Notes: a model not told the origin generated them from the sequence alone. DNA of 64,000 bases from an uncultured Mycoplasmatota bacterium (GCA_900548725.1 URLV01000001.1:3591-67590); one strand, 5' to 3'. Counted from the stretch's first letter, positions 5,321-61,590 are shown. Numbers and translations: made by a program.

Positions 5321-5794
5321 CTATTGAACATAATTAGTCCATTTTATTACAGAATTACCTGCTTTAATATAACCCATAACTGGAAAGTTTTCTTCTATAC
5401 TAGTATCTTTATTAGTTACTATATATTGTATGTCATAAAATTTCTTTTCATCTTCACTAAAATTTTCTAATGCAGACTGACATATTGCTTCACTATCAGA
5501 ATGTTTTCCAGTTTTTAATTCAATATTAACATAAATCAATTTACCCTTAATATTTATTTTTACACTATCAACTAATTCATTCTCTTTTATTTTATTTTCT
5601 ACTTCACTTTTTTTTGTATCAGTAATTTTTACATTATCTATTCCATCTAATCTATTACCATATTTATCTTTAGTAGTCTGTCCAACAAAATAGACTATAA
5701 CTCCTACTAATATAGATACTATACAAACAAGTGATACTAACATTAAAATAGAATATACTCTATTTCTCTTATAAAATTCTTTAAAATTTTTCAT
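5321..5794 (-). CDS. hypothetical membrane-anchored protein (start moved to ATG with RBS AAAGAGGTGG)
   Basis: There is a single N-terminal TM (SILMLVSLVCIVSILVGVIVYFV) and a strong SD 8 nt upstream of the internal ATG. The ORF-track start is 5830. Confidence 0.4.
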   Translation of the reverse strand: MKNFKEFYKRNRVYSILMLVSLVCIVSILVGVIVYFVGQTTKDKYGNRLDGIDNVKITDTKKSEVENKIKENELVDSVKINIKGKLIYVNIELKTGKHSDSEAICQSALENFSEDEKKFYDIQYIVTNKDTSIEENFPVMGYIKAGNSVIKWTNYVQ

Positions 5795-5855
5795 AATCCA
5801 CCTCTTTAATAAAATAATTATACAATACAATTATTTAATAATCAATCAAAGATAT

Positions 5856-5884
5856 TTGACTATAATCATATTTAATGATAGTAT
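5856..5884 (+). promoter_or_regulatory. putative sigma-A promoter (TTGACT-N17-TAGTAT) for the Fic-like gene
   Basis: The -35 and -10 hexamers have 17-nt spacing. They are followed by RBS AAAGAGGTGG and the ATG at 5911. Confidence 0.35.
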
Positions 5885-5910
5885 AACTTATCAAAAAGAG
5901 GTGGCCAATA

Positions 5911-6804
5911 ATGGGATATGAAGATTATATAGAAACATATGGAATCAATTTAACAGAAAAAGAAGCAACTAACATAATAAAATCTTTATTTGAATTGTAC
6001 GAAATAAAAAAGGAAAAAGGTACACTCTATCATCCTGGTGATGAAATTCCATACAACATAATAAATCTATACATGAATTTTATAAATAAAAAAGATCACA
6101 CAATAATATATGAAAACTATAAGTATAAATTTATTTCTAATGAAAGTATTGTAGAACCAGGTATTACTAAAGAAGAAATTGATGGAATAGAAAATGTATA
6201 TAATTACATAAGCATTTTTCAAAAAAATACACCAATAAACATATTCATTGAGTCATTTAAATTACATGCAAAATTATATGAAAAATGTCCTCACCCAGAA
6301 TTTGGAACAAAGTTAAGAGAAGACACTGCAGTTTTGTATGACACACCATATGAAGTTTTGCCAGGCGATTTATCAACTAAGGAATTTAATAAATACATTA
6401 GCAAAACATACGTTTATCAACCTTCAAATAAATTAATAAATTCATTAAACAACAAAACATGGGTGGATTTAAAGATATATAACACTATTTTCAAATATAT
6501 AAATGATTGTATTATTGATTGTGTAAATTTAATAAAATTACAACCATTTGATGATGGAAACAAAAGAACATTCAGAGCATTATTAAATTTATTATTTAAA
6601 CAAGCCGATATTCCACCAATTTACATAAAAAAAGATGAAAGAGATATTTATAAAAGAGAATTATTAAAAGCCATATGCGATGATAATTATGAAGATATTA
6701 TACAATTTTATTATTACAAAATTGCTGATTCAATAATAAGTTTAGGAATTAATAAAAATAAAGAAGAAAAACCAAAAAAATTAAAAAGAGAAAAAAGATA
6801 CTAA
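5911..6804 (+). CDS. Fic/DOC family protein with degenerate active-site motif
   Basis: The protein carries QPFDDGNKRTFRALLNLLF, which aligns to the Fic motif HPFx(D/E)GNGRxxR with H->Q and G->K substitutions. The rest is helical and has a lysine-rich C-terminal tail. Confidence 0.5.
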   Translation: MGYEDYIETYGINLTEKEATNIIKSLFELYEIKKEKGTLYHPGDEIPYNIINLYMNFINKKDHTIIYENYKYKFISNESIVEPGITKEEIDGIENVYNYISIFQKNTPINIFIESFKLHAKLYEKCPHPEFGTKLREDTAVLYDTPYEVLPGDLSTKEFNKYISKTYVYQPSNKLINSLNNKTWVDLKIYNTIFKYINDCIIDCVNLIKLQPFDDGNKRTFRALLNLLFKQADIPPIYIKKDERDIYKRELLKAICDDNYEDIIQFYYYKIADSIISLGINKNKEEKPKKLKREKRY

Positions 6805-6885
6805 AATTTTTACTTAGTATCTTTTTATATAAAATCTCCCCGTTAAAACATTATCTATTTCTAAAATCGCCAACAGACAATATAT

Positions 6886-8868
<1,983 letters not shown>

Positions 8869-8871
8869 TTA

Positions 8872-9756
8872 TCACCATAAATTCTTACTATATTCACCAT
8901 TATTAATTAATTTATTTATTGCATTTTTAACACTATATTTATCTTCTTTATAAGTAACTCCATACCAAACACTATCTGTTTCAATAACTTTAACACTTAT
9001 ATCGCCAGATTTGATATGTAGATCAACTACTTCAGGAATTAAAAATTCATCTTTTTCTTTATCTTTAATATTATTTAAGAAACTAACAAAATCATTTTCT
9101 AAATAATCAAATATTTTTGGAGTAAACAAAAGCATATTCATACTAACTAATCTATTAAGTTCTACATCATATTCTTTACCATCTACTAAAGACTTACAAT
9201 GTATATGATCATCAACTTTTTCAATACTACTTTCATTTATACCAGTAAGTACTCCATTTTCTATTTCACAAACACCACGTTTAACACTACCATTTTCAGT
9301 TATAGTATTACAAGCTCTATAACCAATCAAACCAAATTCTTTATCACTTATTCCATCACTTAAAAATTGATAAGCCTTAACAAAAGAATTTCTACCATAA
9401 AAATCATCTGCATTTATTATTGCAAAAGGTTCATTAATAGCATTTTTACATTCCAAAATGGCATGTCCAGTTCCCCAAGGTTTAACTCTTTCAAAATCTA
9501 TATTAACTGGAACATCTTCCATTTTTTGAAAAACATATTCTACATCAATCTTATCTTCTACTCTTTTACCAATAGTATTTTTAAAATCTTCATACATTTC
9601 TTTTTTAATAACAAATACTATCTTATTAAATCCTGCCTTCTTAGCATCATATACTGAATAATCAATAATAAATTCTCCGTTAGGACCCATAGGTTCCATT
9701 TGTTTTAAACCACCAAATCTGCTACCCATACCAGCAGCTAATATTAATAATGTCAT
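8872..9756 (-). CDS. sugar-phosphate nucleotidyltransferase family protein
   Basis: The N-terminus is LILAAGMGSRFGGLKQMEP, a G-x-G-x-R nucleotidyltransferase signature. Length is 294 aa. Confidence 0.55.
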   Translation of the reverse strand: MTLLILAAGMGSRFGGLKQMEPMGPNGEFIIDYSVYDAKKAGFNKIVFVIKKEMYEDFKNTIGKRVEDKIDVEYVFQKMEDVPVNIDFERVKPWGTGHAILECKNAINEPFAIINADDFYGRNSFVKAYQFLSDGISDKEFGLIGYRACNTITENGSVKRGVCEIENGVLTGINESSIEKVDDHIHCKSLVDGKEYDVELNRLVSMNMLLFTPKIFDYLENDFVSFLNNIKDKEKDEFLIPEVVDLHIKSGDISVKVIETDSVWYGVTYKEDKYSVKNAINKLINNGEYSKNLW

Positions 9757-9767
9757 AAATCTTCCTC

Positions 9768-11849
9768 CTATAATTTACTAATACTTTTATGATTTTTCAT
9801 TAATTTTTTTACTCCACTTTTAAATGCAACATCTATCAAATCACCATTCATATTTACTACAACACCAGTACCCAAACTTTCATGACTAATGATATCACCT
9901 ATTTTAATTTCTGCATTTTCACTCTTGTTATACATTTTTTTAGTATCAATTTTCTTTTCTACTTTGACACCCGCATCATTTTCTTCAATACAATTGCTAT
10001 CGATTTCATCTATAAATCTACTAGGCATATTCATAGTATCTTTACCATATAACATTCTTCTTTTAGCGTTAGTGATATATAATCTTTCTCTAGCTCTTGT
10101 AATACCAACATAACACAAACGTCTCTCTTCTTCAATACCATTTTCCATCAAACTCATTGTATGTGGAAATAATCCTTCTTCCATACCAATTAAGAAAACA
10201 ACATCAAACTCTAAACCTTTAGCACTATGTATAGTCATCAAAGTAACTTCATCACCATCTTCTTTATGACTAGACATATCACTTATCAAACTTATTTCTT
10301 CCAAGAACTCACCTAAACTAACCATACCAGTTCTCTCTTCAAACGAAGCAGTAATACTTTTAAATTCCATCAAGTTATCAAGTCTTAATTCATTTTCTAA
10401 TGTTTTATCTTCTTCTAATTCACGTCTCAAACCAGTCTTAGTTAAAACACTATCAATTAATTCTGTTAAACTCATATTATTGCTATCATTAACTAAATCA
10501 GTTATTAAATTCTTAAATTCAATTTCTTTATTAGTAGATAAAGCATCAAACATACTTATACCTTCTAACATACTAACATTCTCTAAATTTTTAATAGCAG
10601 CATCTCCTATACCACGTTTAGGAACATTAATGATTCTTCTTAAACTAACTTCATCATTATTATTATATATAAGTCTTAAATAACTAATTAAATCTTTAAT
10701 TTCTTTTCTATTATAAAAGTAATAGCTACCAACAACTTTATAAGGTATTCCTTTAGCAAGCATTCCTTCTTCAACTACACGACTTTGCGCATTTGTTCTA
10801 TAAAGTATTCCAATATCTTTTCTATCATATCCTTCATTTAAAAGCTTGTTTATTTCTTCAATAACTAGTGTTATCTCATGTTTTTCATCATAAGCTCTCA
10901 TATACTTAATCTTAATACCTTCACCCTTTTCACTCCATAATTTCAAATCTTTTCTCTCTTTATTATTTTTTATTACAGAGTTAGCAGCATTAAGTATATT
11001 ATTAGTACTTCTATAATTTTCTTCCAACTTAATAACTTTACAATCTTTATAATCTCTTTCAAAATTTAATATATTTCTATAATCAGCTTGTCTAAAAGCA
11101 TAAATACTTTGATTCATATCACCAACAACAAATATATTTTTATTCTTATTAGCAAGCAACTTAGTTAATTTATACTGTACTGGATTAGTATCCTGATATT
11201 CATCAATTAAAATATATTTATATCTATTCTGATATTGTTCTAATATATCTTTATGTTCACTAAATAATATTACAGGTTTACATAACAAATCATCAAAATC
11301 TATACTATTATTCTTAATCATTTTATCTAAATATATATGATAAACTTCTTTAACAACTAAATCTATATCAGTATTAAAACACTTTTCTATTTCCATATCA
11401 CTTAACATCTGACTTTTAATTAAACTAATTTTATTTCTTATATAATAAGGACTATAATGTTTAGGATCTAAATTCTTATCTTTAAGAATCTTTTTTATTA
11501 TACTTAAAACATCATCACTATCTATTATAGTAAAGTTTTTATCTAATCCTAAATACATATAATTTTCTCTTATTATTCTAAGACCAAACGAATGAAATGT
11601 CCCTATAAAACTAGATATATCATATCCAAATATTTTATTAACTCTTTCTTTCATTTCTTTAGCAGCTTTATTTGTAAATGTTATTGCAAGTATATTATAA
11701 TCTCTTATTCCATTTTCAATTAAATATGCAATTCTAGTAGTAAGTACTTTAGTTTTACCACTACCAGCACCAGCCATTACTAAGCATGGGCCATCTATAT
11801 GTTTAACAGCTTCTATCTGTTGTTTATTTAAATTATTTAATAGTTCCAT
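9768..11849 (-). CDS. pcrA: ATP-dependent DNA helicase PcrA (UvrD family)
   Basis: It has Walker A AGAGSGKT, a DExQD-like IDEYQDTN, and UvrD C-terminal motifs (VTLMTIHSAKGLEFDVVFL, YVGITRA). It sits adjacent to ligA, as in Firmicutes. Confidence 0.92.
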   Translation of the reverse strand: MELLNNLNKQQIEAVKHIDGPCLVMAGAGSGKTKVLTTRIAYLIENGIRDYNILAITFTNKAAKEMKERVNKIFGYDISSFIGTFHSFGLRIIRENYMYLGLDKNFTIIDSDDVLSIIKKILKDKNLDPKHYSPYYIRNKISLIKSQMLSDMEIEKCFNTDIDLVVKEVYHIYLDKMIKNNSIDFDDLLCKPVILFSEHKDILEQYQNRYKYILIDEYQDTNPVQYKLTKLLANKNKNIFVVGDMNQSIYAFRQADYRNILNFERDYKDCKVIKLEENYRSTNNILNAANSVIKNNKERKDLKLWSEKGEGIKIKYMRAYDEKHEITLVIEEINKLLNEGYDRKDIGILYRTNAQSRVVEEGMLAKGIPYKVVGSYYFYNRKEIKDLISYLRLIYNNNDEVSLRRIINVPKRGIGDAAIKNLENVSMLEGISMFDALSTNKEIEFKNLITDLVNDSNNMSLTELIDSVLTKTGLRRELEEDKTLENELRLDNLMEFKSITASFEERTGMVSLGEFLEEISLISDMSSHKEDGDEVTLMTIHSAKGLEFDVVFLIGMEEGLFPHTMSLMENGIEEERRLCYVGITRARERLYITNAKRRMLYGKDTMNMPSRFIDEIDSNCIEENDAGVKVEKKIDTKKMYNKSENAEIKIGDIISHESLGTGVVVNMNGDLIDVAFKSGVKKLMKNHKSISKL

Positions 11850-11964: not shown

Positions 11965-13137
11965 TTAGTTTTCTAAAGATTTCTTTAATTCTAAAATATA
12001 CTGTATTCTAAGATTTATTTGATAAATTATTTTATCTATTCTTTCTTTTGATATCAATTTATTTTTTGAAAGTATATTTTTGACCTCATCAGTAAAATTT
12101 TCTAATTTAGAAACATCAAACCAATCCAAATTTTTTACTAATCTAATTTGAGTTTTTTCGTAATCATCAAAAGGTTTTGTTAAAAAGAATTCCCCTACAT
12201 ACATATCATTTTCATCATACCACAAAGAACATCCATTATCGAATATTGGAGCAACACCTACAAATTCTAAAGTATTAACATCTCTTATAACACCAAAATT
12301 ATTAAAATGTCTATCTTTATTTGCAATTATAAAATCACATACTATCATTTTATTTATTAAAGTTTCTGCATCTTTAAGTCCTAACTTATTTAAACAATTT
12401 AAATAATGGGTATATTTATTTTCATCATTTATAAATTCAAAAAAATCATTTATTTTCCAAGCAGGAACTAATTCTGTATCCTTTGTAATAAAATTTTTAC
12501 ATTTTGATATAGCTCTCTCATTATCATAAATTACACTATACGAAACATATTCGTTTTTATTCAACAATCTTTCATAAAGTTTAGTAGCAATTAACTCATT
12601 AAAAGGTTCTTGATTATAAATCTTACTTCCAGCTTTCAATAAATATCTATCTCCATCTATTATTTTCCATCTTTTTTCATAATTACCATTACTTGTCATA
12701 TCAGGAGTATTCAAATTCAACTTCAAAGATGTTTTACCACCACTAAATAATATTTTACCTATATCTTCGGAAAACTCATTATCAAAAAAATTAATTTTCT
12801 CCCACTTTATATCTTCATCAATACTCTTTACCCAATATTGGTCTGATAAAGAAAGACAATAAGCTTTTGAATCTAACAAATCAAAATTATCTTTATCATA
12901 AATATAACTATTATGCAAAACTTCTTTTAAACCATTTCTAGACGCTGGAATTTGTCTATTCTTCCACCATTTATTAAATTCTACTTTATTTATTTCATTG
13001 TTTTTTATTAAACCAAATGGTGCATAATCTTCATTTAAAGGATAATTTCTTTCAAAATCAACAATAATATGTTGTTCTTCATCATAAATAAAATCAAATA
13101 TTTTTTTATTTTTATTCATTAACGTAAATTTCGCCAA
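11965..13137 (-). CDS. HipA-like serine/threonine kinase family protein (no adjacent HipB)
   Basis: The C-terminal region IIANKDRHFNNFGV...APIFDNGCSL resembles the HipA_C catalytic and Mg-binding motifs, which in HipA read ..D.H.KNFS.. and ..AP.YD... Confidence 0.45.
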   Translation of the reverse strand: MAKFTLMNKNKKIFDFIYDEEQHIIVDFERNYPLNEDYAPFGLIKNNEINKVEFNKWWKNRQIPASRNGLKEVLHNSYIYDKDNFDLLDSKAYCLSLSDQYWVKSIDEDIKWEKINFFDNEFSEDIGKILFSGGKTSLKLNLNTPDMTSNGNYEKRWKIIDGDRYLLKAGSKIYNQEPFNELIATKLYERLLNKNEYVSYSVIYDNERAISKCKNFITKDTELVPAWKINDFFEFINDENKYTHYLNCLNKLGLKDAETLINKMIVCDFIIANKDRHFNNFGVIRDVNTLEFVGVAPIFDNGCSLWYDENDMYVGEFFLTKPFDDYEKTQIRLVKNLDWFDVSKLENFTDEVKNILSKNKLISKERIDKIIYQINLRIQYILELKKSLEN

Positions 13138-14652: not shown

Positions 14653-14958
14653 CTAAATATTATAATTTATTAAATCATCTATAGAATTATTTAATAAATA
14701 TAAAAGCATGTTTTTATCTAATTTAGTAAAATTTTGCTTAACTAATGATAATGGTAAGAAAAATAAATCTATTCTATTTTTAATAACATTATAAATATCT
14801 TCCACACCAAAATCTTTTAAATATTTTATAATTTCTTTAACGTTTCTCTTAGAAAAATTTAAATTCTTAAGAAGAACATTATCATAAGTATTAATTATAT
14901 CTTTAATCTGATCATCACTTAAATCATATTCTTTGAGATAACTTAACACTTTCCTCAC
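14653..14958 (-). CDS. hypothetical protein (101 aa), operon member
   Basis: ORF track. The gene overlaps its upstream neighbour by 35 nt. No motif was recognised. Confidence 0.35.
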   Translation of the reverse strand: MRKVLSYLKEYDLSDDQIKDIINTYDNVLLKNLNFSKRNVKEIIKYLKDFGVEDIYNVIKNRIDLFFLPLSLVKQNFTKLDKNMLLYLLNNSIDDLINYNI

Positions 14959-15598
14959 CCATTTCTAATAGAGGTCTTACTGCATTAATAACTTCTTCTA
15001 TATTTGCTACATTATTTTTATATTTTAAACAACTAACAAATATATCCAAGTCTTTTTCTTTCCCTCTATAATTACATAAATTACGTAAAACTCTTTCTCT
15101 ACTAACTACATGTACTCCAAAAGAATAAGTTCCTTCTTTATTTAAGTATTTGTTATCAAGCTCTGAAACTATGTTCTTTATTACATTATGGTCATTAAAG
15201 AAATTTTCTAAACGTACTTCATCAAAGTTTTCATTAACAAACATTTTATTAAGTAAAACCTCTTCATCAGACGAAGTACTATCTATTTTACCATAAAGTG
15301 ATTTATCTTTGCAAGTTTTTGCTTCTCCATAAGTTTTTTGTATGTTAAGACCTCTGATAAAATCAATATTATCTAAACTTACTCCATCACTTTTTTTCCA
15401 TAATCCTTTTTCTATTAAATAATCTAATCTATCACTTAAAGATTGCATACCAAGTATCACATAACCATTGTTATTATTATCATTAGTTAAACTAATACCG
15501 TATCTACTTAAAACATGAATGTTGTCAAAAATAACATTAGGTTTAGTTACTAAAACACCACCAACATGTTCTAAAACATTTTTACATATTGCCCCCAC
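14924..15598 (-). CDS. hypothetical protein (224 aa), operon member
   Basis: ORF track. Its start overlaps the stop of the upstream gene. No motif was recognised. Confidence 0.4.
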   Translation of the reverse strand: MGAICKNVLEHVGGVLVTKPNVIFDNIHVLSRYGISLTNDNNNNGYVILGMQSLSDRLDYLIEKGLWKKSDGVSLDNIDFIRGLNIQKTYGEAKTCKDKSLYGKIDSTSSDEEVLLNKMFVNENFDEVRLENFFNDHNVIKNIVSELDNKYLNKEGTYSFGVHVVSRERVLRNLCNYRGKEKDLDIFVSCLKYKNNVANIEEVINAVRPLLEMGEESVKLSQRI

Positions 15599-16512
15599 TA
15601 ATTATCAACCTCCACGCTATTAAGTTTATCAACTAATCCTTTATTAATATTATAATCATTAACAAAGAAAACATCAAAATTAAGCATTTTCTTAAAATCA
15701 ACATTATTTTCTTTTATCAAATTATAATTATTAACAAAATTATCATAATTACACATAACACAATTATATTTACATTTACTATTAACTAAATCTTTAATAA
15801 ATATAGAAGGTATATTACTTACTACTTTATTAATATTTGCATGTTCATTTTCAAATATCTTTATTATATCATTTACATTATCTAAATTAGAATGTAACAT
15901 AATACTAATTAAAACATTTTTATCCTCTAACTTATCAAATAAAACCCTTTTCATTCCATTATCAGTTTTTATATTAATAGCAAAACTTTTAAATTTTTCT
16001 AAATCAACATATTTACTTAAATCATTTAATAAATCTTTATCTATATCATTTTCATTAATTTCCAAATAATCAAGTATATCTTTTAATTTAACATCAATAT
16101 TATCAAAATTAATATCAGAAGAAATAGGTATATCTTGAGATTTAACTTTCTTATTCATCAAATAAATATTATATCTATTTAAATTAAGCATAATATCATA
16201 CATAATAAAATCTATACCCTTATTTATATTATTAACAATGTCTTTTAGATAACCATCAACATTATCTCTAGTTGTATCATATTTTTCTTTTAAATATTCA
16301 TCTAATACACTACCTATATCACATCCAGTAACTATCCTACTAACTTCTTTATAGTTAGTAATATATTGAATTTTTTCTGTACGATTTTTAACACCATTTA
16401 AAATACTAATAATATTTTCTATATCTTTTAATGAATTTTTATCGTGTTCTTTATTTTCTTCACATTTTTTAAACATAGAAAAATATTCTAGTAATACATC
16501 AATAAATTCCAA
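15598..16512 (-). CDS. hypothetical protein (304 aa) with C-terminal CKYNCVMCNYD cysteine cluster, operon member
   Basis: ORF track, with 1-nt overlap to the next gene. The cluster has four Cys within 9 residues near the C-terminus. Confidence 0.4.
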   Translation of the reverse strand: MEFIDVLLEYFSMFKKCEENKEHDKNSLKDIENIISILNGVKNRTEKIQYITNYKEVSRIVTGCDIGSVLDEYLKEKYDTTRDNVDGYLKDIVNNINKGIDFIMYDIMLNLNRYNIYLMNKKVKSQDIPISSDINFDNIDVKLKDILDYLEINENDIDKDLLNDLSKYVDLEKFKSFAINIKTDNGMKRVLFDKLEDKNVLISIMLHSNLDNVNDIIKIFENEHANINKVVSNIPSIFIKDLVNSKCKYNCVMCNYDNFVNNYNLIKENNVDFKKMLNFDVFFVNDYNINKGLVDKLNSVEVDN

Positions 16513-16523
16513 AATATTACCTC

Positions 16524-17486
16524 CTAACTTTCAATTTTTTTAATAACATCATAACTATCTACTAATTCAAGTAAATCTTTTAAATTTTTCTCTATTTTTA
16601 AAGCATCACTATCTTTATCTTCCTTAAGCATTTCTTTAGTTTCTTTATAAATTTTATTCATTGTATCTAAAATAGGAACTTTTTGATATTTAACTAACAT
16701 ATCATTATTTAAATTCATTTTCTCTATTTGTTCATCATCATAATCTAATATTTCTAATGAGGTTTTAATAATCTCATCAGTTATATTATTAATTAAATTT
16801 TTTTCTCTAATCAAAATACTTTCTACAAAAGATAATATTTCTTCATCACTATACTCTATAACATCATTTTTTTTATCGGCTTCACTTTTTCTAGCAAAGT
16901 CAATATTCTTTTCGCCTATATATTCCAATATTTGCCATTTTTCACTAGTAATAATTCCACTTTTTTTAAGAACTTCATTAAATTCTTCTATATCATATAT
17001 AGGTTTAATTAATTTATCATTCTTAAAATAACTTATATACTTTTTATATAAATTATTACTTATCTTCAAACTATTATAATATTCTTTATTATTATTATTA
17101 AAATCTTTAATATACTCTTTAATATATTTTATTTGTTCATCAAGCCAACTAATATATGATTCTATCTGTTCTTTATTGCTAACATTTATTTCTCCATCAC
17201 TTACTAGTTTTTGATTAACTTTTATACTAACTGTTGCATTAAAGAAAATTTTCATTTTTTCTTCTTTGTCATCAAAATTAAATACGTCTAATATTTTCAT
17301 AAAGTCATCTTTATCAAGTAAGGCCAAATCCTCCCCTTTTAAATCATCTATATCCTTTAACGTTTTCAATGTAAGCATATTTTTAACATCAGTTATTCTA
17401 TCCATCTTACTTTGAAAATCTTTTAACTGCTCATCAACAGTATCTATTTTCTTAGATAACTCTGTTATAAAGGAATTGATATACAT
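16524..17486 (-). CDS. hypothetical coiled-coil-rich protein (320 aa), first gene of operon
   Basis: ORF track. The RBS is GGAGG. The promoter TTGTTT-N17-TATACT lies upstream on the minus strand. Confidence 0.45.
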   Translation of the reverse strand: MYINSFITELSKKIDTVDEQLKDFQSKMDRITDVKNMLTLKTLKDIDDLKGEDLALLDKDDFMKILDVFNFDDKEEKMKIFFNATVSIKVNQKLVSDGEINVSNKEQIESYISWLDEQIKYIKEYIKDFNNNNKEYYNSLKISNNLYKKYISYFKNDKLIKPIYDIEEFNEVLKKSGIITSEKWQILEYIGEKNIDFARKSEADKKNDVIEYSDEEILSFVESILIREKNLINNITDEIIKTSLEILDYDDEQIEKMNLNNDMLVKYQKVPILDTMNKIYKETKEMLKEDKDSDALKIEKNLKDLLELVDSYDVIKKIES

Positions 17487-18049: not shown

Positions 18050-18305
18050 AGAGATAAATGACATATTAAATAATATAGATTTTGAAAACAATAAACTTAT
18101 TAAAATAAATGAAAATTTATATTTAACCAATAATCAAATAGATATTCTCAAAAGATATAATATTGATTATGAAACATCAAATAGTCTAAGAGATTTAATG
18201 ATTAAAATAGAAGATATTTTAGATTATGAAGAAGATATACCAGAACTAGAAGACCTACTAGATAAATTATCTGAAAGAAATTATTATGAATTTACAAACA
18301 AATAG
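18033..18305 (+). CDS. hypothetical acidic small protein (90 aa)
   Basis: ORF track. Its start overlaps the stop of the upstream gene, which suggests translational coupling. Confidence 0.35.
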   Translation: MIKMNKEINDILNNIDFENNKLIKINENLYLTNNQIDILKRYNIDYETSNSLRDLMIKIEDILDYEEDIPELEDLLDKLSERNYYEFTNK

Positions 18306-18325
18306 AATGTAATATCCCATACATT

Positions 18326-18547
18326 CTATTTTAATTTTTTTACAAATCTAGCTACTAAAACATCATCATAAATTGAAGAAAACGTTTCAGCATCAAAGTT
18401 AACTATATCGCCATTTCTAACATAGTTATATAATATATCTTTTTTCATTAATAAATATTTTTTTATATTTACTTTATTAAAATTATTAAGTTCAATTATA
18501 GTTCCTACATTTCCATCATAATCTTTTATTATTCCTATTTTTTTCAT
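18326..18547 (-). CDS. hypothetical small protein (73 aa), overlaps the 3' end of the 1419-aa gene by 32 nt
   Basis: ORF track. The arrangement is a translationally coupled small ORF after a giant gene. Confidence 0.35.
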   Translation of the reverse strand: MKKIGIIKDYDGNVGTIIELNNFNKVNIKKYLLMKKDILYNYVRNGDIVNFDAETFSSIYDDVLVARFVKKLK

Positions 18548-21500
18548 AACTAACTCCCATTATTTTATTTTTTACTTGATTCATTTCATCACATACAAAT
18601 TCTTTATTAAAACCTCTATCAATTATAAATTCATCTAATATATTACCAAATTCATCAAATACTATATACCAATCTTCTCCTAAATACATAGAAGATATTA
18701 AATTTTTATAACCACAACTCTCATTATAAATTTGTATATCTGAAATATCTTTACCACAAACAATATCGTTAATCATTCTAATTTTATCAATTTCATTTAT
18801 TATTTCATATACATTGTTAATTAATTTAACTGGCTGTCTACTAACATCATATAGTGTTTCTTTATTATCAGTTAGTTTAATAGATGTTAAATTACCACGG
18901 CTTGTTGCTAGTACAATTGCACATGAATTAACATCAGAATAGAAATTTGATGATAATCCTTTCTTTATGTCATCACAATGTATATTAGTTATTTTATCTG
19001 TGTAAGAACGCATTGAAAAACCATCAGAAATAACCACATTATCAATAGGAATTTCATCAACTTTAGTTTTATCGATTAACATTTTTGAAAATTTTTCTAA
19101 AGCATCTATTAAATCAACGGCATCATACTTTGAATCTACACTATATCTAAGTTGATTTAAAAATATAGTATTTCCATTTCTAAATCCACTAACTCTACTA
19201 ACGAAATTACCTGTATCACTCATAAATTTTATATGAAAACCATTAACATCAGTTAAGCAAAATCTAAATAAACTATCAGCATGTCCCTTAATTCTCATAC
19301 AAGCACCTGTTCTTTCACCCATAGTTAGATTTGTCATATCAGTACTATTTGTAATTTGTACATTTATTTTTTTATTATTAATTTCAATATTTTCATTAAG
19401 TGGTGGAACACTTATTTTTTCTCTTTTATACATTTCTTTAATTAGAGCAACAGAATCATTTAATCTAACTTCACTTCTATAAGGAGCCGAATTTGGCCCA
19501 GGATTACTTTTAATTAATTTAAAATCTTCTTTTCCCAACAATTTAGTATATTTATAAGAAGTACTAGCATATATCAAAGCTTCATTTAATAAACTAGTTA
19601 AAGTAATACTTCTTTCAGTTGTTATACCATTCATTTTTCTTTCATCATTCATATGTCGATTCTGTTCAAGTAAATTAGGATAAATTCTATAAAAATTATT
19701 TAAGAATGAACATATAGTATCTTTATCTATATCCAAATCAACTTCATTAGATAAATCACTAAAAGTGTTACCCCAACCAATAAGTTTATATTTTCTCAAC
19801 AAATTTAATAAATCATTATATAAAACATCATTATTTAATAAATTATCTTTCAATAAATTTATATTCATATTGCTCAATACTGAAACTGTATCTTCTTTAG
19901 AGTAAGGTATATTATACAACTTCTTACAATCTATACAAATAAATTTATAACTATTTTTATTTAAATAAAATTTATCCATAAGATTACTAAAAATTTTCAT
20001 CAGCTGTAATACTTCGTTTTTGTTTTCAATCTTTTCACCTTTTTTAAGTAATACTATATTTTTTAATAAATTTTCATTATCTAATAATTCTTTCTCTTCC
20101 AAAGTTAAATTATTTACATCAATTCTCTTTAAGTAATAAATTATAGTTTCAACATCTTTTGTTTTAATCCATTCTCTTATAAATGAATTTTTTTCATAAG
20201 TTTCTTCCAATTTTAAATTTTCTTTACTTTTATTAAAATTATTTTTAACAAATTCATTTCTCTTTTCTAAAATATATTTATTAGTAAATATATTTAAAAT
20301 TTCTAAATTACTATTAATTTTATTTACATCATATAAATCTTTAATAAATTCATCAACTTTTTTATAATTATATTTTTTTAGTGTATTAGAAATATAATTA
20401 GTATCTTCAATCACAATATCTTTTAATTTAGAATCGCATAAATAATAACTTATTTCATCAATTTCTTTAAACAAATCTTTAAAATTACCAGAAATTAAAT
20501 AATTTCTAATTCTATTAAATATTCCTAATATATTTCTATTATTTAGAGTAAATTTTTTCTGTAATAATACACTTAATACATTATCTATATGTTGTTCATT
20601 GGTTAATATCATTTCTTGTACATTAAACATATTCATTATCTTTTTATAATTATTATCATCTAAATTCAATAAATTAATAATATTTTCACTATTTAAAAAT
20701 CTATAAACAACATTACCATATTTACTAATTAAATCAACTAAGTGATTATAAGAACATTTATAATACTCACTATAATATTTAACAACTTCTTCATCTAAAC
20801 TACCATGATTAATAAAATCATCATCATGCATAAAATTATTTATATAATCGATTCCTAAATGATACTTAATAGCATATTTAATTTTTAAATTAACATCTTT
20901 AAATGAATCTATAAATTGTTGTATAGATATATTATCATTTGCACCTAATTCAAAAAATTTATCTAAAAACTCTATTTTATATTCATCACTTATTCCAGTT
21001 ATATTAGTTAGAATTTGTAAAGCTTTTGTTTTAGAATTAACATAAATTTTTTCTATACATTCTTTCTTTTTATCTTCACTATGAATTGAGTTCAAAAACA
21101 TGATATAATCATTTTTCTCTTTAAAATTATATTTATTTAGCAAATATAATTTATAATTATCATATTCTTTATCCTTAAAACAAATCACTAATTTAGGAAA
21201 AAAGCTATCTTCTAAATTATCAACATTATTTTCAATTATTTTTAATAAATCAATTTTAATAGAATAATTTTCAACAGAAATTAAAATATTTTCAAAATAT
21301 TGTACCAATTTAATTGTATCAGGATATAAAAAATTATTAAAGTTATCTACAATAAATTTAGTATTAATTTCATTTATTGATAATGAACTTATTAGTTTAC
21401 TTATTTCTAAATCATCCAAATCAAAACTATTGTTTATAATGTATTTTCTCTTATTATCATCATTAAATTTTTCTAATATTTCCAATAATATTTTATCATC

Positions 21501-22775
21501 TAAAATATATTTAATTTTATTATCATTTCTAACATAATTTATAATTTCAATTTTTAAATCATCGTTACCCAAACTTTTAATTAACTCAATTTTCAGATAA
21601 GGATCAATATCACTGTTTTTAATAATTTTAATTTTATTATCATCACTTAACTTTTCTAAAACAAGCCAATCTTCTGAAAATATTAAGGGTAAAACGTTAC
21701 TTTTTTTTATAGATAAATATATATTAAGCTTAATTTTTTCATCTTTAATAGAATATAATATTTTTTTTCTGAAACTTTCAAACAATTTTTCATTTTTAAC
21801 AATTAAAACTTTTATATCATCAGGCATTTCTAAAAAACTATTACTTTCAATATAACCTTTTTTATTCAATTCTATCATGTAATCAATTAAAGTATTATCT
21901 AAATTATAAGTTTTATAAATATATTTATCATAAAAAATACTAACAACATCATATTTGTTTAAATATTTTTCATAATTAATATTTTTTAATACTTCTAATA
22001 TTTCATCTAAATTTAAATATTCTAATGTATCGCAAATGTCATTCGAATTTAATTTTTCCAATAAAATTTCATTTTTTAGCAGTTGAATTTTATCATTATT
22101 ATTAAAACTTTCCATAGCTTGTCTAATAACACTACTATAAATATTAATATCTTTATCCAAAACAATTTTTTTAAACTTATCCAAATCAGCATTTTGTAAA
22201 ATAATATTAAAACAATTCTTACTAATTTTATTATTTTTTAAATATTTTATTTGATTATCTAAACTCATAGAAGAAATAACTTGAGCTATTACATTAGAAC
22301 TTTTATAATCATTAATCATTTTTTGTTTTTCACCATCAGTCAAAGTATTTAAATATAAAGAAGTATGATTATACTTATTCAAATTTTCTTTTTTCATCTC
22401 TTCATTTTTAAAAGACATAATTAAATATTCTGATAAATCATTATCATATTTCATTAAATGTAAAAAACTATTTTTTTCATCATCAGTTAATCCAAATAAA
22501 GAAATATAATATCTATCAACATCATCAAAATACAAATACTCATTACTTATACTATTTAATATTTTTTTACTTTCTTCACGACTAAAAATATTAGATAAAA
22601 ACATTACTACATCTTTAGTATATTTTAAACGTTCTTCTAAAATATCATTATATTCTATGATATTATCAACAAATTGTAATCTATCAGAAAAAGAATAATT
22701 ATCAATAAAATAATTAGTATTGCTATTGTTTTTAATTTCATTAATTATTTTCTCTAAATCACTTTTCTTTATCAT
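18516..22775 (-). CDS. giant hypothetical protein (1419 aa), cytoplasmic (no signal peptide or TM), N/K/I-rich helical N-terminal 1000 aa and a Cys/His-containing C-terminal domain
   Basis: It is an uninterrupted 4.26-kb ORF. No known motifs were recognised. The C-terminus has ..TMGERTGACMRIKGHADSLFRFCLTDVNGFH.. Confidence 0.5.
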   Translation of the reverse strand: MIKKSDLEKIINEIKNNSNTNYFIDNYSFSDRLQFVDNIIEYNDILEERLKYTKDVVMFLSNIFSREESKKILNSISNEYLYFDDVDRYYISLFGLTDDEKNSFLHLMKYDNDLSEYLIMSFKNEEMKKENLNKYNHTSLYLNTLTDGEKQKMINDYKSSNVIAQVISSMSLDNQIKYLKNNKISKNCFNIILQNADLDKFKKIVLDKDINIYSSVIRQAMESFNNNDKIQLLKNEILLEKLNSNDICDTLEYLNLDEILEVLKNINYEKYLNKYDVVSIFYDKYIYKTYNLDNTLIDYMIELNKKGYIESNSFLEMPDDIKVLIVKNEKLFESFRKKILYSIKDEKIKLNIYLSIKKSNVLPLIFSEDWLVLEKLSDDNKIKIIKNSDIDPYLKIELIKSLGNDDLKIEIINYVRNDNKIKYILDDKILLEILEKFNDDNKRKYIINNSFDLDDLEISKLISSLSINEINTKFIVDNFNNFLYPDTIKLVQYFENILISVENYSIKIDLLKIIENNVDNLEDSFFPKLVICFKDKEYDNYKLYLLNKYNFKEKNDYIMFLNSIHSEDKKKECIEKIYVNSKTKALQILTNITGISDEYKIEFLDKFFELGANDNISIQQFIDSFKDVNLKIKYAIKYHLGIDYINNFMHDDDFINHGSLDEEVVKYYSEYYKCSYNHLVDLISKYGNVVYRFLNSENIINLLNLDDNNYKKIMNMFNVQEMILTNEQHIDNVLSVLLQKKFTLNNRNILGIFNRIRNYLISGNFKDLFKEIDEISYYLCDSKLKDIVIEDTNYISNTLKKYNYKKVDEFIKDLYDVNKINSNLEILNIFTNKYILEKRNEFVKNNFNKSKENLKLEETYEKNSFIREWIKTKDVETIIYYLKRIDVNNLTLEEKELLDNENLLKNIVLLKKGEKIENKNEVLQLMKIFSNLMDKFYLNKNSYKFICIDCKKLYNIPYSKEDTVSVLSNMNINLLKDNLLNNDVLYNDLLNLLRKYKLIGWGNTFSDLSNEVDLDIDKDTICSFLNNFYRIYPNLLEQNRHMNDERKMNGITTERSITLTSLLNEALIYASTSYKYTKLLGKEDFKLIKSNPGPNSAPYRSEVRLNDSVALIKEMYKREKISVPPLNENIEINNKKINVQITNSTDMTNLTMGERTGACMRIKGHADSLFRFCLTDVNGFHIKFMSDTGNFVSRVSGFRNGNTIFLNQLRYSVDSKYDAVDLIDALEKFSKMLIDKTKVDEIPIDNVVISDGFSMRSYTDKITNIHCDDIKKGLSSNFYSDVNSCAIVLATSRGNLTSIKLTDNKETLYDVSRQPVKLINNVYEIINEIDKIRMINDIVCGKDISDIQIYNESCGYKNLISSMYLGEDWYIVFDEFGNILDEFIIDRGFNKEFVCDEMNQVKNKIMGVSYEKNRNNKRL

Positions 22776-22865: not shown

Positions 22866-23303
22866 CTAGTAAACACTAATATTTTTATTTTCTCTTTTCA
22901 AATCACGTTCCTTAATACTTTCTCTTTTATCATATAATTTTTTACCCTTACATAATCCAAGAAGTACTTTAGCATAATTTCCTTTAAAATATAATTTAAG
23001 TGGTATCAAACTATATCCATCTTTCATTACTTCACTTTTCAATTTAACAATTTCATTTCTTTTTAATAAAAGTTTTCTTTCTCTTCTTTCAGGAACATTA
23101 TATCTATTCCCCTCTTCATAAGGAGCAATATACATATTTATAATAAATACTTCACTATTTTTAATTCTAGCATATGTGTCTTTTAGATTAGTACTACCTT
23201 TTCTAATTGATTTAATTTCTGTACCAGATAAAACTATACCACATTCAATTTCTCTTTCAATAAAATAATCAAAATATGCTTTTCTATTCTTTATCTCCAT
23301 CAT
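22866..23303 (-). CDS. smpB: SsrA-binding protein SmpB (start at internal ATG with RBS GGTGGGGGA)
   Basis: The sequence KNRKAYFDYFIEREIECGIVLSGTEIKSIRKG...YNVPERRERKLLLKRNEI is canonical SmpB. It overlaps the rnr stop by about 20 nt. Confidence 0.9.
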   Translation of the reverse strand: MMEIKNRKAYFDYFIEREIECGIVLSGTEIKSIRKGSTNLKDTYARIKNSEVFIINMYIAPYEEGNRYNVPERRERKLLLKRNEIVKLKSEVMKDGYSLIPLKLYFKGNYAKVLLGLCKGKKLYDKRESIKERDLKRENKNISVY

Positions 23304-25398
23304 TTTTATCCCCCACCAACTCAAAATCAATAGTTCTAGCTTCTTTGCTAGCACCTACAACCTTTACACGTACTTTATCACCTAAAGTATAACGTTTCTT
23401 AGTATTCTGTCCAATCAAGCATAATAGTTCTTCAACATAATTATAGTAATCCCCCTTTAAACTATTTACATGAACCAAACCTTCAATTAAATTATCTAAT
23501 TCAACAAATAATCCAAAAGATTCTACACCACTTATAACACCATCATACTCTTCTCCAATATGTTTTTCCATATATTCAGCCATTTTCATGTCATCAACTT
23601 CACGTTCTGCATCAACACTAGCTTGTTCTCTTTCACTAGCTTGTCCAGCAATATAATCTAAGTTAGCGTTATAATAATCAATAGTTTCATTATCAATTTT
23701 ATTTTCATATAAATATTTTCTTAACAATCTATGAACTTCTAAATCAGGATAACGTCTAATAGGTGATGTAAAATGAGTATAACATTTGCTGCCCAATCCA
23801 AAGTGTCCTATATTATCTTTTTGATATACAGCCTTTCTCATACTACGTAATAACATACTAGAAAGTATTTTATATTGAGGAACATCTTTTAATTGATTTA
23901 ATAATTTTTGCATACTTACTGGAGTGAAATCTTTAACTTTTCCATTAACTTTATATCCAAGTAAACTAACTAATTTTAAAAATTTATCAATCTTATCAGC
24001 ATTTGGGACATCATGAACTCTATAAATAAATGGTAAATCCATATTATAAATGTGTGTTGCAACTGTTTCATTAGCAGCAATCATAAAATCTTCAATCATA
24101 CGTTCTGCATCTTCTCTAACTCTTTTTTCTATTCCAACAACATTTTTATCTTCATCAACAATAATCTTTGCCTCATCTAAATCAAAATCTATATATCCTC
24201 TTTTGATTTTATTTCTACGTAATATATGAGCTAACTCATTCATTTGTTTTAATACATCACCAAATTTCTCATAACTAGAATCAACAATATTACGCATAAT
24301 AATATCATTAACTTTCTTATAAGTCATTTTCTTTCTAGATTTTATAAATGATGGAAATATATCATAATCTACAACGTTACCTTCGTTATTTATTTTCATA
24401 ACGCAAGATTGTGTAAGTCTAACAACTCCTTCATTCAAAGAACAAATACCATTTGATAATTTATGAGGAAGCATAGGTATAACACTATCTGCCAAATAAG
24501 AACTAGTACCGCGACTTAAAGCATCTTTGTCAAGATAACTATTTTCAGTAACATAGTATGAAACATCTGCAATATGAACTCCTAAAACATGTAACCCATT
24601 TTCAAATTTATAACTAATTGCATCATCTATATCCTTAGTATCATCACCATCAATTGTAAAAATTACTTCATTAGTTAAATCTGTTCTTCCCTTTAATTCA
24701 TTATCACTTACAACATTAGGTATAGCATCTGTTTGTTCCATTGCTTTATTACTAAATTCTTCATAAATATTATATTTATAAGCGACTAACTTAATATCAA
24801 CACCAGGATCATCTTTATGACCAATAACTGTTGTTACTCTACCCATATACTTATTCTTAGACATCTCTTTAGTTATGCTAACAATAACTTTAGTACCTTC
24901 TACTAAACCATTAGTACTCTTAGAATCTAATTTTATATCTAACTTTTTATTCTTATCTTCCAACTTGACAAAAGGTTTGTTATCAACAAAATATATTTCA
25001 CCTATCAAATTACTTAAATCTCTATTTAAAACTCTAAGTACTCTACCTTCAGTTTTACCATGATTATTAATTATTTCAACTAATACTCTATCATCATTAA
25101 CAGCACCATTAATATTATCTTTATCAATATATATATCTTCCCCATCTTTAATAATTAGAAAACCAAATCCTTTTTTATTCAAAGATAATATACCTGCTTT
25201 TAAACTAGGACAATTCTTAAATAAAATATACTTATTCTTTTTAGTTTTATAAACAACACCATCTTTTTCTAATTCACATAAAACATTATTTAATCTACTT
25301 AAATCTTCTGGACTAGTTAATTCCAATAGATCATTAATTTCTATAACATCAAGTGCCTCATATCTATCACTCATTACATTAATTATTTGTTCTTTCAT
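23284..25398 (-). CDS. rnr: ribonuclease R
   Basis: It has an RNB catalytic domain (HFGLGSKCYTHFTSPIRRYPDLEVHR), cold-shock domains, and a C-terminal S1 with a lysine-rich tail. Length is 704 aa. Confidence 0.9.
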   Translation of the reverse strand: MKEQIINVMSDRYEALDVIEINDLLELTSPEDLSRLNNVLCELEKDGVVYKTKKNKYILFKNCPSLKAGILSLNKKGFGFLIIKDGEDIYIDKDNINGAVNDDRVLVEIINNHGKTEGRVLRVLNRDLSNLIGEIYFVDNKPFVKLEDKNKKLDIKLDSKSTNGLVEGTKVIVSITKEMSKNKYMGRVTTVIGHKDDPGVDIKLVAYKYNIYEEFSNKAMEQTDAIPNVVSDNELKGRTDLTNEVIFTIDGDDTKDIDDAISYKFENGLHVLGVHIADVSYYVTENSYLDKDALSRGTSSYLADSVIPMLPHKLSNGICSLNEGVVRLTQSCVMKINNEGNVVDYDIFPSFIKSRKKMTYKKVNDIIMRNIVDSSYEKFGDVLKQMNELAHILRRNKIKRGYIDFDLDEAKIIVDEDKNVVGIEKRVREDAERMIEDFMIAANETVATHIYNMDLPFIYRVHDVPNADKIDKFLKLVSLLGYKVNGKVKDFTPVSMQKLLNQLKDVPQYKILSSMLLRSMRKAVYQKDNIGHFGLGSKCYTHFTSPIRRYPDLEVHRLLRKYLYENKIDNETIDYYNANLDYIAGQASEREQASVDAEREVDDMKMAEYMEKHIGEEYDGVISGVESFGLFVELDNLIEGLVHVNSLKGDYYNYVEELLCLIGQNTKKRYTLGDKVRVKVVGASKEARTIDFELVGDKNDGDKE

Positions 25399-44960: not shown

Positions 44961-45127
44961 AAAAAGAGTATTTAAAAACAAAAATGAATACAGATAATAG
45001 TAAAACCTTAAAATATTTAAAAGCAGTGTATAAAGTTGTAGATAATAACAGTGATATGCGTAATAGCAAAACGATTAAAAGAATGTTAAAATATGATAAA
45101 AATAAGAATAAAGATTTAAATGATTAA
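44957..45127 (+). CDS. small lysine-rich protein (56 aa), start overlaps stop of the 977-aa gene (ATGA)
   Basis: I translated it by hand: MKKEYLKTKMNTDNSKTLKYLKAVYKVVDNNSDMRNSKTIKRMLKYDKNKNKDLND. The arrangement suggests translational coupling. Confidence 0.3.
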   Translation: MKKEYLKTKMNTDNSKTLKYLKAVYKVVDNNSDMRNSKTIKRMLKYDKNKNKDLND

Positions 45128-61233: not shown

Positions 61234-61590
61234 TGGTGGAGCCGGTGAGAATTGAACTCACGTCCAAAATACTTTCTTATCCAACATCTACAAGTTTAGT
61301 TAGAACAAATTATTCATTAATAAAAAAGAGTCTAACAATCCTATTTATTAATATAGTTTATAAATATTCATCAATTATCCTAAACAAAACAATTGATATA
61401 TCTTATATATATGAACCCTAATCAAATCTATAAGCAAATAAGATTAAAGTGCTTTATTGCCAAATTAGGCAAATGCTAAAGCGTTATTATTAAATGTTTT
61501 GTCAGTTAATTTAAACTGGTTGCTAATTAAGGGATAGCACACCACTTGCAGTTAGATAGAAACATATCCTGTCGAAACCATTACGACCCC
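61234..61590 (-). ncRNA. ssrA: tmRNA (ssrA), tag (A)DKTFNNNALAFA
   Basis: The 5' end is GGGGTCGTAATGGTTTCGACAGGA. The 3' tRNA-like end is GGACGTGAGTTCAATTCTCACCGGCTCCACCA. The tag reading frame is UAACU-GAC AAA ACA UUU AAU AAU AAC GCU UUA GCA UUU GCC UAA, which parallels the B. subtilis layout. Confidence 0.85.

Follow-up and report, generated by a model that had tools for sequence, protein, structure and literature searches.

Two kinds of described gene pair frame the locus reported here. Type II GNAT toxins are small proteins that carry a canonical acetyl-CoA motif and are paired with an antitoxin encoded upstream, a DNA binder of the ribbon-helix-helix (RHH)/DUF1778 kind; toxins of the TacT and AtaT type modify aminoacyl-tRNA or RNA. 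Polymorphic toxins, for their part, join a conserved N-terminal trafficking part to variable C-terminal toxins. Here we analyze two overlapping genes, encoding a giant protein of 1419 amino acids (aa) and a partner of 73 aa, in a stretch of 64,000 nucleotides (nt) from an uncultured Mycoplasmatota bacterium (GCA_900548725.1 URLV01000001.1:3591-67590; hereafter the window; features are collected in Table 1). Our findings show that the giant gene and the 73-aa gene form a conserved and previously unannotated two-gene unit of uncultured gut Bacilli, and that both products are members of unnamed families. The giant protein is predicted to end in a divergent acetyltransferase-like fold, and the partner to adopt a cold-shock-like barrel.

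The family of the giant protein is large. A profile of its C-terminal 780 aa, run with HMMER over 1.84 billion representatives clustered at 50% identity, retrieved 609 family representatives at E <= 1e-3, of which 324 also pass E <= 1e-30; the median length among 164 family proteins is 1110 aa. Relatives are encoded on 101 stretches of GTDB contigs (one genome per species), mostly from metagenome-assembled genomes (MAGs) labelled uncultured Bacilli, Erysipelotrichaceae, 'Tenericutes', Candidatus Coprovivens or Candidatus Onthocola, with a few bins labelled Muribaculaceae, Bacteroidaceae, Lachnospiraceae, Roseburia or Clostridium. Record titles suggest human, rabbit and ruminant samples as origins, and a scan of IMG/VR viral contigs found no family relatives. 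Many genomes hold multiple copies (at least seven in one MAG), some of them in tandem arrays of four (locus L038), three (L059) or two (L034, L041 and L064). Every copy in the L059 array has its own overlapping small gene, as do the first two of the four in L038. Conservation is confined to the last ~750 aa: tblastn and hidden Markov model (HMM) matches mostly span query aa ~650-1400, and the helical region N-terminal to this differs among members both in length and in sequence. In a divergent subgroup (L073-L081; 1260-1290 aa) the similarity to the rest of the family is limited to the last ~340 aa.

How tightly are the two genes linked? We surveyed all 86 fetched loci, with 96 family open reading frames (ORFs), by tblastn and jackhmmer. 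A homologous gene for 66-101 aa lies beside 68 of the 96 family genes, immediately downstream in 57 cases and upstream only in 11, and 55 of the 57 downstream partners overlap the big gene by 1-65 nt, most commonly by 4, 11 or 32 nt. The initial annotation had described a 73-aa ORF overlapping the last 32 nt of the giant gene, with which the coordinates agree, and had counted absence of a small ORF from homologous loci as an argument against a pair; given the 68 partners, that argument falls away. The small gene is also the sole widely recurring neighbour of family members, being found at 55 loci as against at most 14 for any other gene. Pairwise identities of the small protein correlate with those of the C-terminal domain (r = 0.67, a value reached by none of 500 permutations), and thus the pair has been inherited and duplicated as a unit. 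The 73-aa gene is probably translationally coupled to the giant gene, with a GGGAG ribosome-binding site of its own 7 nt 5' of its ATG, inside the 3' end of the giant gene. The charges of the two products are complementary, with isoelectric points (pI) of 9.4 for the basic small protein and 5.4 for the acidic giant. In locus L060 (5001-9356) the two proteins share a single reading frame, in which the big protein continues at its C-terminus into the cold-shock-like domain (aa 1369-1443 of 1451) and a Leu codon stands in place of the usual start Met; this could be a genuine fusion or an artefact of MAG assembly. A single locus, L030 (5772-10340), has a canonical 154-aa GNAT ORF with a QRKGIG motif (6040-6504); this ORF fills the interval that separates the small cold-shock-like gene (5772-6038) from the big gene (6513-10340).

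In the window, secG, the RNase R gene (rnr) and smpB lie upstream of the giant gene on the same strand, with FemAB divergent from them. The pair keeps this position beside secG-rnr-smpB among relatives that are 51-90% identical, which suggests vertical inheritance at a stable locus. In the more distant L084 and L058, and in L044, it adjoins rnr/smpB in a different arrangement, and most family members are found elsewhere, at unrelated loci.

The giant gene itself is beyond doubt an open frame. At the G+C content of the window (~22%), ~9% of random codons would be stops by our own arithmetic, so that 1419 open codons lie beyond chance; an AGAGG ribosome-binding site stands 8 nt 5' of the ATG, and a 90-nt spacer separates the gene from smpB. 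Its translation confirms the uninterrupted 4.26-kb frame of the initial annotation, which had also described the product as devoid of a signal peptide, transmembrane segment or NTPase motif. This description holds: there is no transmembrane segment (the maximum Kyte-Doolittle mean over 19 residues is 0.94), the N-terminus does not resemble a signal peptide, and of the Walker A and metal motifs sought neither is present. Among the 164 family proteins five have a marginal hydrophobic stretch, in each case with charged residues inside. The giant protein, as a member of a family with no apparent signal peptide or transmembrane segment, is predicted to be cytoplasmic. Neither the giant nor the small ORF matches Pfam, NCBIfam, PADLOC or PHROGs, and no source names the giant protein. 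When it was searched together with 15 homologues against Pfam and NCBIfam at E <= 5, the sole match was a weak one to the MgtE_N helical repeat (E 0.008), in the N-terminal region of five of the 16 members; PDB sequence searches with profiles A2 and A7 and with the single small sequence gave spurious matches only (NtrC, FabH, SufE).

As the initial annotation had recognized, much of the protein is of low complexity: I, K, L and N make up ~50% of residues across the first 1040 aa. Within the N-terminal region BLAST finds no internal repeats, and a coiled-coil architecture was likewise not detected. Its first 640 aa align poorly with homologues or are replaced or absent there, the corresponding region being typically ~340 aa long.

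The distinct C-terminal domain that had been proposed from the sequence is borne out by structure prediction. An AlphaFold2 model of aa 1040-1419, built from 16 sequences, has a predicted local distance difference test score (pLDDT) of 85.3 and a predicted TM-score (pTM) of 0.83. In a Foldseek search of the PDB, nearly all of the top 50 matches to this model are GNATs, with NatD as the best (E 2.8e-5, probability 1.0), and TM-scores normalised to the target are 0.60 for Gcn5 (1m1d), 0.56 for RimI and ~0.5 for SpeG. GNATs were also returned from the viral structure library, and the DSSP order of aa 1127-1291 matches the beta1-alpha1-alpha2-beta2-beta3-beta4-alpha3-beta5-alpha4-beta6 topology of GNATs. 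The model thus assigns to the C-terminal domain a divergent GNAT acetyltransferase-like fold, and it is by fold that we place it in this superfamily. A match to a housekeeping fold had been named as evidence against a toxin; a match was obtained, and it is ambiguous as a test because the GNAT fold serves housekeeping enzymes and toxins alike.

Most conserved positions in this domain fall in the alpha1-alpha2 loop (NLTxGERTGACMRIxG) and in the beta3/beta4/post-beta4 segment (SRVSGFRNGNTIFLNQLRxS). Across 77 aligned homologues, G1153, C1159, R1161, G1164, F1180, R1194, G1201, N1202, N1207 and L1209 are invariant within the core motif, and R1104 and R1313 outside it; these twelve, together with ~27 near-invariant residues, are mostly polar or Gly and lie mainly within one 70-aa stretch. 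The Cys/His-containing string singled out by the initial annotation, GACMRIKGHADSLFRFC, is present at aa 1157-1173; its Cys1159 is invariant in the 77 homologues, whereas His1166 is not conserved. The invariant polar residues C1159, R1161, R1194, N1202 and N1207 are grouped in the alpha1-alpha2 and beta4-alpha3 regions. In GNAT structures, these two loop regions form the acceptor and donor sites. A PcfJ-like domain, considered as a candidate because of a Cys-containing motif, was rejected: it gave only weak viral Foldseek matches (probability 0.8 and 0.23, TM ~0.2), no Pfam match and no useful literature.

The pattern of selection singles out the same motif, on which purifying selection is very strong. 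We computed ratios of non-synonymous to synonymous substitution rates (dN/dS) in 100-codon windows against a 90%-identical orthologue (L087, 3001-7260). The giant gene as a whole has a dN/dS of 0.33, and its first 640 codons one of 0.36, as compared with 0.04 for the neighbouring RNase R; values for individual windows include 0.04 (aa 1101-1200), 0.79 (aa 1201-1300) and 0.94 (aa 701-800), and no window exceeds 1. The fast window at aa 1201-1300 spans alpha3-beta5-alpha4 of the GNAT-like core. The invariant residues and the dN/dS of 0.04 at the motif therefore point to a functional pocket under constraint within a protein that otherwise evolves fast, and a functional site at the Cys/Arg-rich motif is likely on this comparative evidence.

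Chance alone could give a 73-codon ORF at this G+C content. We consider the small ORF a real gene because of its GGGAG ribosome-binding site, the hairpin and T-rich run behind it, its homologues beside 68 of 96 family genes, a dN/dS of 0.14 against L087 and a confident fold model. The hairpin with its T-run directly follows the stop codon and, as read from the sequence, is a probable end of the operon; in a terminator scan nothing passed the G+C rule, this hairpin being below the threshold. A promoter scan was uninformative in such AT-rich DNA (71 promoter-like sites vs 64 expected). The fetched loci contain 64 distinct homologues of the 73-aa protein. Its AlphaFold2 model, made from a shallow alignment (A6), is a five-stranded barrel with a pLDDT of 87.6, and the best PDB matches found by Foldseek are cold-shock domains (CSDs; TM 0.63-0.75), among them Unr CSDs, Thermus and Bacillus Csp, CRHSP-24, Lin28 and YBX1. 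A profile of 40 family sequences matches five PDB cold-shock proteins in register, though weakly (E 0.004-0.19, with Csp chains at E 0.004-0.05), and hhalign gives a probability of 30% against CspA/CspB; none of the 40 members matched the Pfam CSD model (PF00313), and one met the CSDE1 model at E 0.1. The model thus predicts a cold-shock-domain-like barrel of the oligonucleotide/oligosaccharide-binding (OB) type. Only G5, G15, V49, F51 and A66 are invariant in the small family, a pattern that fits a fold-preserving binder; with only Gly, Val, Phe and Ala invariant, the 73-aa protein is therefore unlikely to be a substrate that is modified at a specific site.

How might such a pair act? From the two folds, each of them already known, and from the linkage of the genes, we infer catalysis, a complex of the two proteins and a role for nucleic acid. 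Our preferred reading, which we hold tentatively and at somewhat short of even chances, is a two-subunit cytoplasmic enzyme composed of a GNAT-fold transferase domain, a variable targeting arm and a co-translated cold-shock-like subunit. We envision that the C-terminal domain would be an active group-transfer enzyme (acyl or aminoacyl) with an unusual donor or acceptor, in which the invariant Cys/Arg/Asn-rich residues of two donor/acceptor-binding loops would take the place of the acetyl-CoA loop. The variable N-terminal helical arm would probably pick the target. The 73-aa barrel would be made in step with the giant protein through translational coupling, bind it and add a surface for single-stranded RNA or DNA, so that the substrate, the guide or the activating signal might be nucleic acid.

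Several observations weigh against this two-subunit enzyme. No profile method (Pfam, NCBIfam, PDB profiles) ties the sequence to any GNAT family, and the structural matches to GNATs have moderate TM-scores (0.4-0.6, normalised to the length of the target). The acetyl-CoA loop Q/R-x-x-G-x-G/A (motif A, beta4-alpha3) is absent; the post-beta4 loop at aa 1207-1218 instead reads N-Q-L-R-Y-S-V-D-S-K-Y-D, with no Gly and with N1207, L1209, R1210 and S1212 conserved. The fold could therefore be non-catalytic or take another ligand. As to the partner, the nucleic-acid-binding ribonucleoprotein motifs RNP1 (K/R-G-F/Y-G-F-I; KGFGFI) and RNP2 (VFVHF) are not conserved in the 73-aa family, where the aligned positions read (Y/F)DGxxGxI and YL(F/L)L and Y10 and Y31 alone are broadly retained, and the barrel could therefore be a pure protein-protein adaptor. 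Moreover, no partner could be detected for 25 of the 96 family genes; nine of the 25 make up the entire divergent subgroup L073-L081, and several others are fragments. A further three of the 96 are cut by a contig end. Finally, the lineage-specific expansion with its tandem arrays, and a dN/dS of the giant eight-fold above that of RNase R, are explained by a conflict system no less well than by an ordinary enzyme.

Such a conflict system, akin to toxin-antitoxin or abortive-infection modules, is a possibility to be reckoned with, if on balance an unlikely one. The GNAT-fold protein would then be a growth-arresting effector that modifies, for example, aminoacyl-tRNA or other RNA; the small protein would neutralise it or sense foreign single-stranded nucleic acid, the N-terminal arm would be the sensor, and the expansion of paralogues would reflect an arms race. 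This would accommodate a GNAT fold with a small co-translated partner, the several copies per genome with their arrays (L038 x4, L059 x3) and variable N-termini, and the raised dN/dS (0.33 for the entire giant gene and 0.8-0.9 for two windows of 100 codons, where RNase R has 0.04), even if no window rises above 1. Invariant residues that are structural only would be expected of a co-evolving binder, and Abi_2, Fic and HipA_C-like genes do occur elsewhere in the window. However, PADLOC gives no match, IMG/VR viral contigs hold no relatives, and mobile elements do not recur among the neighbours; the locus is stably syntenic beside housekeeping genes in relatives of 51-90% identity. Known GNAT toxins, moreover, are ~170 aa long, retain the acetyl-CoA motif and are preceded by the gene of an RHH/DUF1778 antitoxin; the present pair shares none of these features, and an in-frame fusion of both proteins would be odd for a labile antitoxin.

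Conceivably, the pair could be the first known case of a new lineage-specific system for surveillance or modification in the cytoplasm of gut Bacilli, although we regard this as decidedly unlikely. Here, the cold-shock-like subunit would capture RNA or DNA that is single-stranded and either foreign or damaged, and would thereby license a non-canonical GNAT-fold effector with a catalytic Cys/Arg site. This effector would modify RNA, tRNA or a translation or RNA-decay factor, and the diversified N-terminal arms of the paralogues, of which a genome may hold seven or more, would give different specificities.

Alternatively, the giant protein might be a non-catalytic scaffold, whether cytoskeletal, nucleoid- or sporulation-associated, with a degenerate GNAT-like binding module and the small barrel as its adaptor. 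A large cytoskeletal or DNA-associated protein was one of the suggestions of the initial annotation, and nothing that we found identifies the giant as an SMC-like, cytoskeletal or spore-coat protein. The missing cofactor motif, the lack of a sequence match to any enzyme family and the long helical N/K/I/L-rich regions would suit a scaffold, and the hosts appear to be spore-forming (YabG is encoded in the window, and spoIIGA-sigE adjoins one homologue). Yet the constrained polar/Gly motif, with its dN/dS of 0.04, is what one expects of an active site or a ligand-binding site, and neither the coiled coils nor the internal repeats of a scaffold architecture were detected; we think this explanation improbable, with a slim chance of being correct.

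The position beside rnr-smpB in the window and, rearranged, in L084, L058 and L044 raises a further alternative, which we consider highly improbable: a lysine acetyltransferase resembling Pka/PatZ that regulates RNA quality control via the neighbouring RNase R or SmpB. In E. coli, acetylation of Lys544 by Pka makes RNase R unstable (PMC4797298), and the same paper cites work according to which tmRNA-SmpB regulate RNase R stability; this acetylation would provide a precedent. RNase R itself has cold-shock domains, and a large N-terminal region followed by a C-terminal GNAT fold is found here as well. However, most family members reside at unrelated loci, and secG-rnr-smpB is a common housekeeping block, such that adjacency may reflect ancestry only. 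Neither an acyl-CoA-synthetase-like N-terminal domain nor an acetyl-CoA motif is present, and several paralogues per genome would be unexpected for a single regulator.

The gene layout had also been read as that of a polymorphic toxin for secretion and its immunity protein. This is hardly credible, because three of the four defining features of such a system fail and the layout alone fits (a large gene and, overlapping its end, a small ORF, with tandem copies in some genomes). The conserved and variable ends are reversed (the C-terminal ~750 aa are conserved and the N-terminus is variable), there is no signal peptide and no match to any Pfam model, those of LXG, WXG, Rhs and other trafficking domains included, and no type VII secretion system (T7SS)/ESX or other dedicated export genes occur among the window ORFs scanned (most of those of at least 100 aa). 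In addition, the partner is one conserved cold-shock-like family, sometimes encoded upstream and once fused.

The window has a strongly negative GC skew, with most genes on the minus strand, and elsewhere holds further housekeeping genes (LigA, a UvrD-type helicase, BipA, acetate kinase, Hsp90, rubrerythrin/Fur and a Mur ligase), tRNA-Cys and the sporulation protease gene yabG. The tmRNA gene, at 61234-61590, is 38 kb from smpB and encodes the tag peptide DKTFNNNALAFA. As listed, with a GTG start, the smpB ORF (22866-23354, minus strand) overlaps the end of the RNase R gene (23284-25398, minus strand) by 71 nt; its true start is probably further downstream, because relatives call an SmpB of 144-145 aa. 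The Abi_2, Fic and HipA_C-like genes, at 902-1768, 5911-6804 and 11965-13137, are scattered over the first 13 kb among housekeeping genes such as those for LigA and the UvrD-type helicase. Downstream of the pair, at 14653-17486 on the minus strand, lie four ORFs in the same orientation (320, 304, 224 and 101 aa), for which Pfam and NCBIfam give no match, nor do PADLOC and PHROGs for the first three. These are conserved in the closest relatives only (L001, L086 and L087), where their dN/dS of ~0.01-0.1 indicates strong purifying selection; we considered them as part of the module and rejected this, given their retention in close relatives only.

At 42027 the initial annotation had pointed to a 977-aa protein of the same layout. 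It is indeed followed by an overlapping 56-aa ORF, and the 977-aa ORF has no Pfam, NCBIfam, PADLOC or PHROGs match; neither of the two is a relative of the giant or of its 73-aa partner, and we rejected both as family members. They lie in a ~4-kb stretch of reversed GC skew, adjoined by DUF6985 and a gene for a TrwB-like coupling protein of type IV secretion systems (neighbours extending to 47027), and this stretch may be an inserted element. In L083 (6397-10967), a distant homologue of the giant protein (P0009) that has no small partner directly follows spoIIGA (Peptidase_U4) and a sigma factor gene, in the place where sigG normally follows sigE in spore-formers.

Table 1. Positions of the gene pair, its predicted domains and other features (window coordinates unless a locus is named)
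Feature	Position	Strand	Remarks
Giant gene, 1419 aa	18516..22775	-	Uninterrupted ORF by ORF list and translation
Variable N-terminal region, aa 1-640	20856..22775	-	I/K/L/N-rich, with degenerate L-[ST]-D-D-x-K motifs
Family-conserved middle region, aa 641-1040	19656..20855	-	Covered by most tblastn and HMM matches
Conserved C-terminal domain, aa 1041-1419	18519..19655	-	Predicted helical cap, GNAT-fold core (aa ~1127-1291) and C-terminal beta/alpha subdomain
Core motif NLTxGERTGACMRIxG ... GFHI ... SRVSGFRNGNTIFLNQLRxS, aa 1143-1212	19140..19349	-	
73-aa partner gene	18326..18547	-	Overlaps last 32 nt of giant gene
Hairpin GAATGTA...TACATTC and T-rich run	18290..18325	-	Directly after small ORF stop; read from sequence
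977-aa ORF and 56-aa follower	42027-45127	+	Follower at 44957-45127, 4-nt overlap
Tandem paralogue arrays	L038 1092-17213; L059 2962-14199		Four copies; three copies

If the two-subunit enzyme that we favour is correct, the implications are twofold. A large unnamed family would be defined, with 609 clusters at 50% identity, proteins typically of ~1100 aa and several copies per genome, in hosts that are abundant, uncultured gut Bacilli, and annotators would have two new domain families to name. The GNAT fold would gain a version without the acetyl-CoA loop but with an invariant Cys/Arg site and a cold-shock-like partner, which suggests new acyl-transfer chemistry on nucleic acids or on the translation or RNA-decay machinery, or else a new two-gene conflict module. 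In the libraries and literature searched, we found no described counterpart of a GNAT fold that lacks the acetyl-CoA loop, ends proteins of 1000-1900 aa and is linked to a cold-shock-like partner.

Comparison with known systems places the pair between several of them. With polymorphic cassettes (LXG/T7SS, Rhs, CDI) it shares a large gene followed by a small overlapping one, sometimes in tandem, but it shows the opposite conservation pattern, has neither a trafficking domain nor secretion genes, and its partner family is conserved. Pat, PatZ and Pka likewise combine a large N-terminal region with a C-terminal GNAT-fold domain; the giant protein differs from these in having no NDP-forming acyl-CoA-synthetase-like domain (no Pfam match in the N-terminal 1040 aa) and no sequence similarity, and its family is multi-copy and mostly located elsewhere than at rnr-smpB. 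The type II GNAT toxin-antitoxin pairs TacT-TacA, AtaT-AtaR, KacT-KacA and ItaT-ItaR also unite a GNAT-fold protein with a small co-translated partner, whereas here the GNAT-like protein is a giant without the motif, and its cold-shock-like partner is mostly encoded downstream. The 73-aa protein resembles the cold-shock proteins (CspA, CspB, Unr CSDs, Lin28, YBX1) in being a basic, five-stranded barrel of ~70 aa, and differs in that its gene does not stand alone but accompanies one particular partner gene. Finally, the ~165-residue core of the giant protein has the strand and helix order of the GNAT superfamily (NatD/Naa40, Gcn5, RimI, SpeG) at ~10% identity; in place of the Q/R-x-x-G-x-G/A pyrophosphate loop it has N-Q-L-R-x-S, to which it adds an invariant Cys and Arg in the alpha1-alpha2 loop as well as extra N- and C-terminal subdomains, and the domain so built terminates proteins of 1000-1900 aa.

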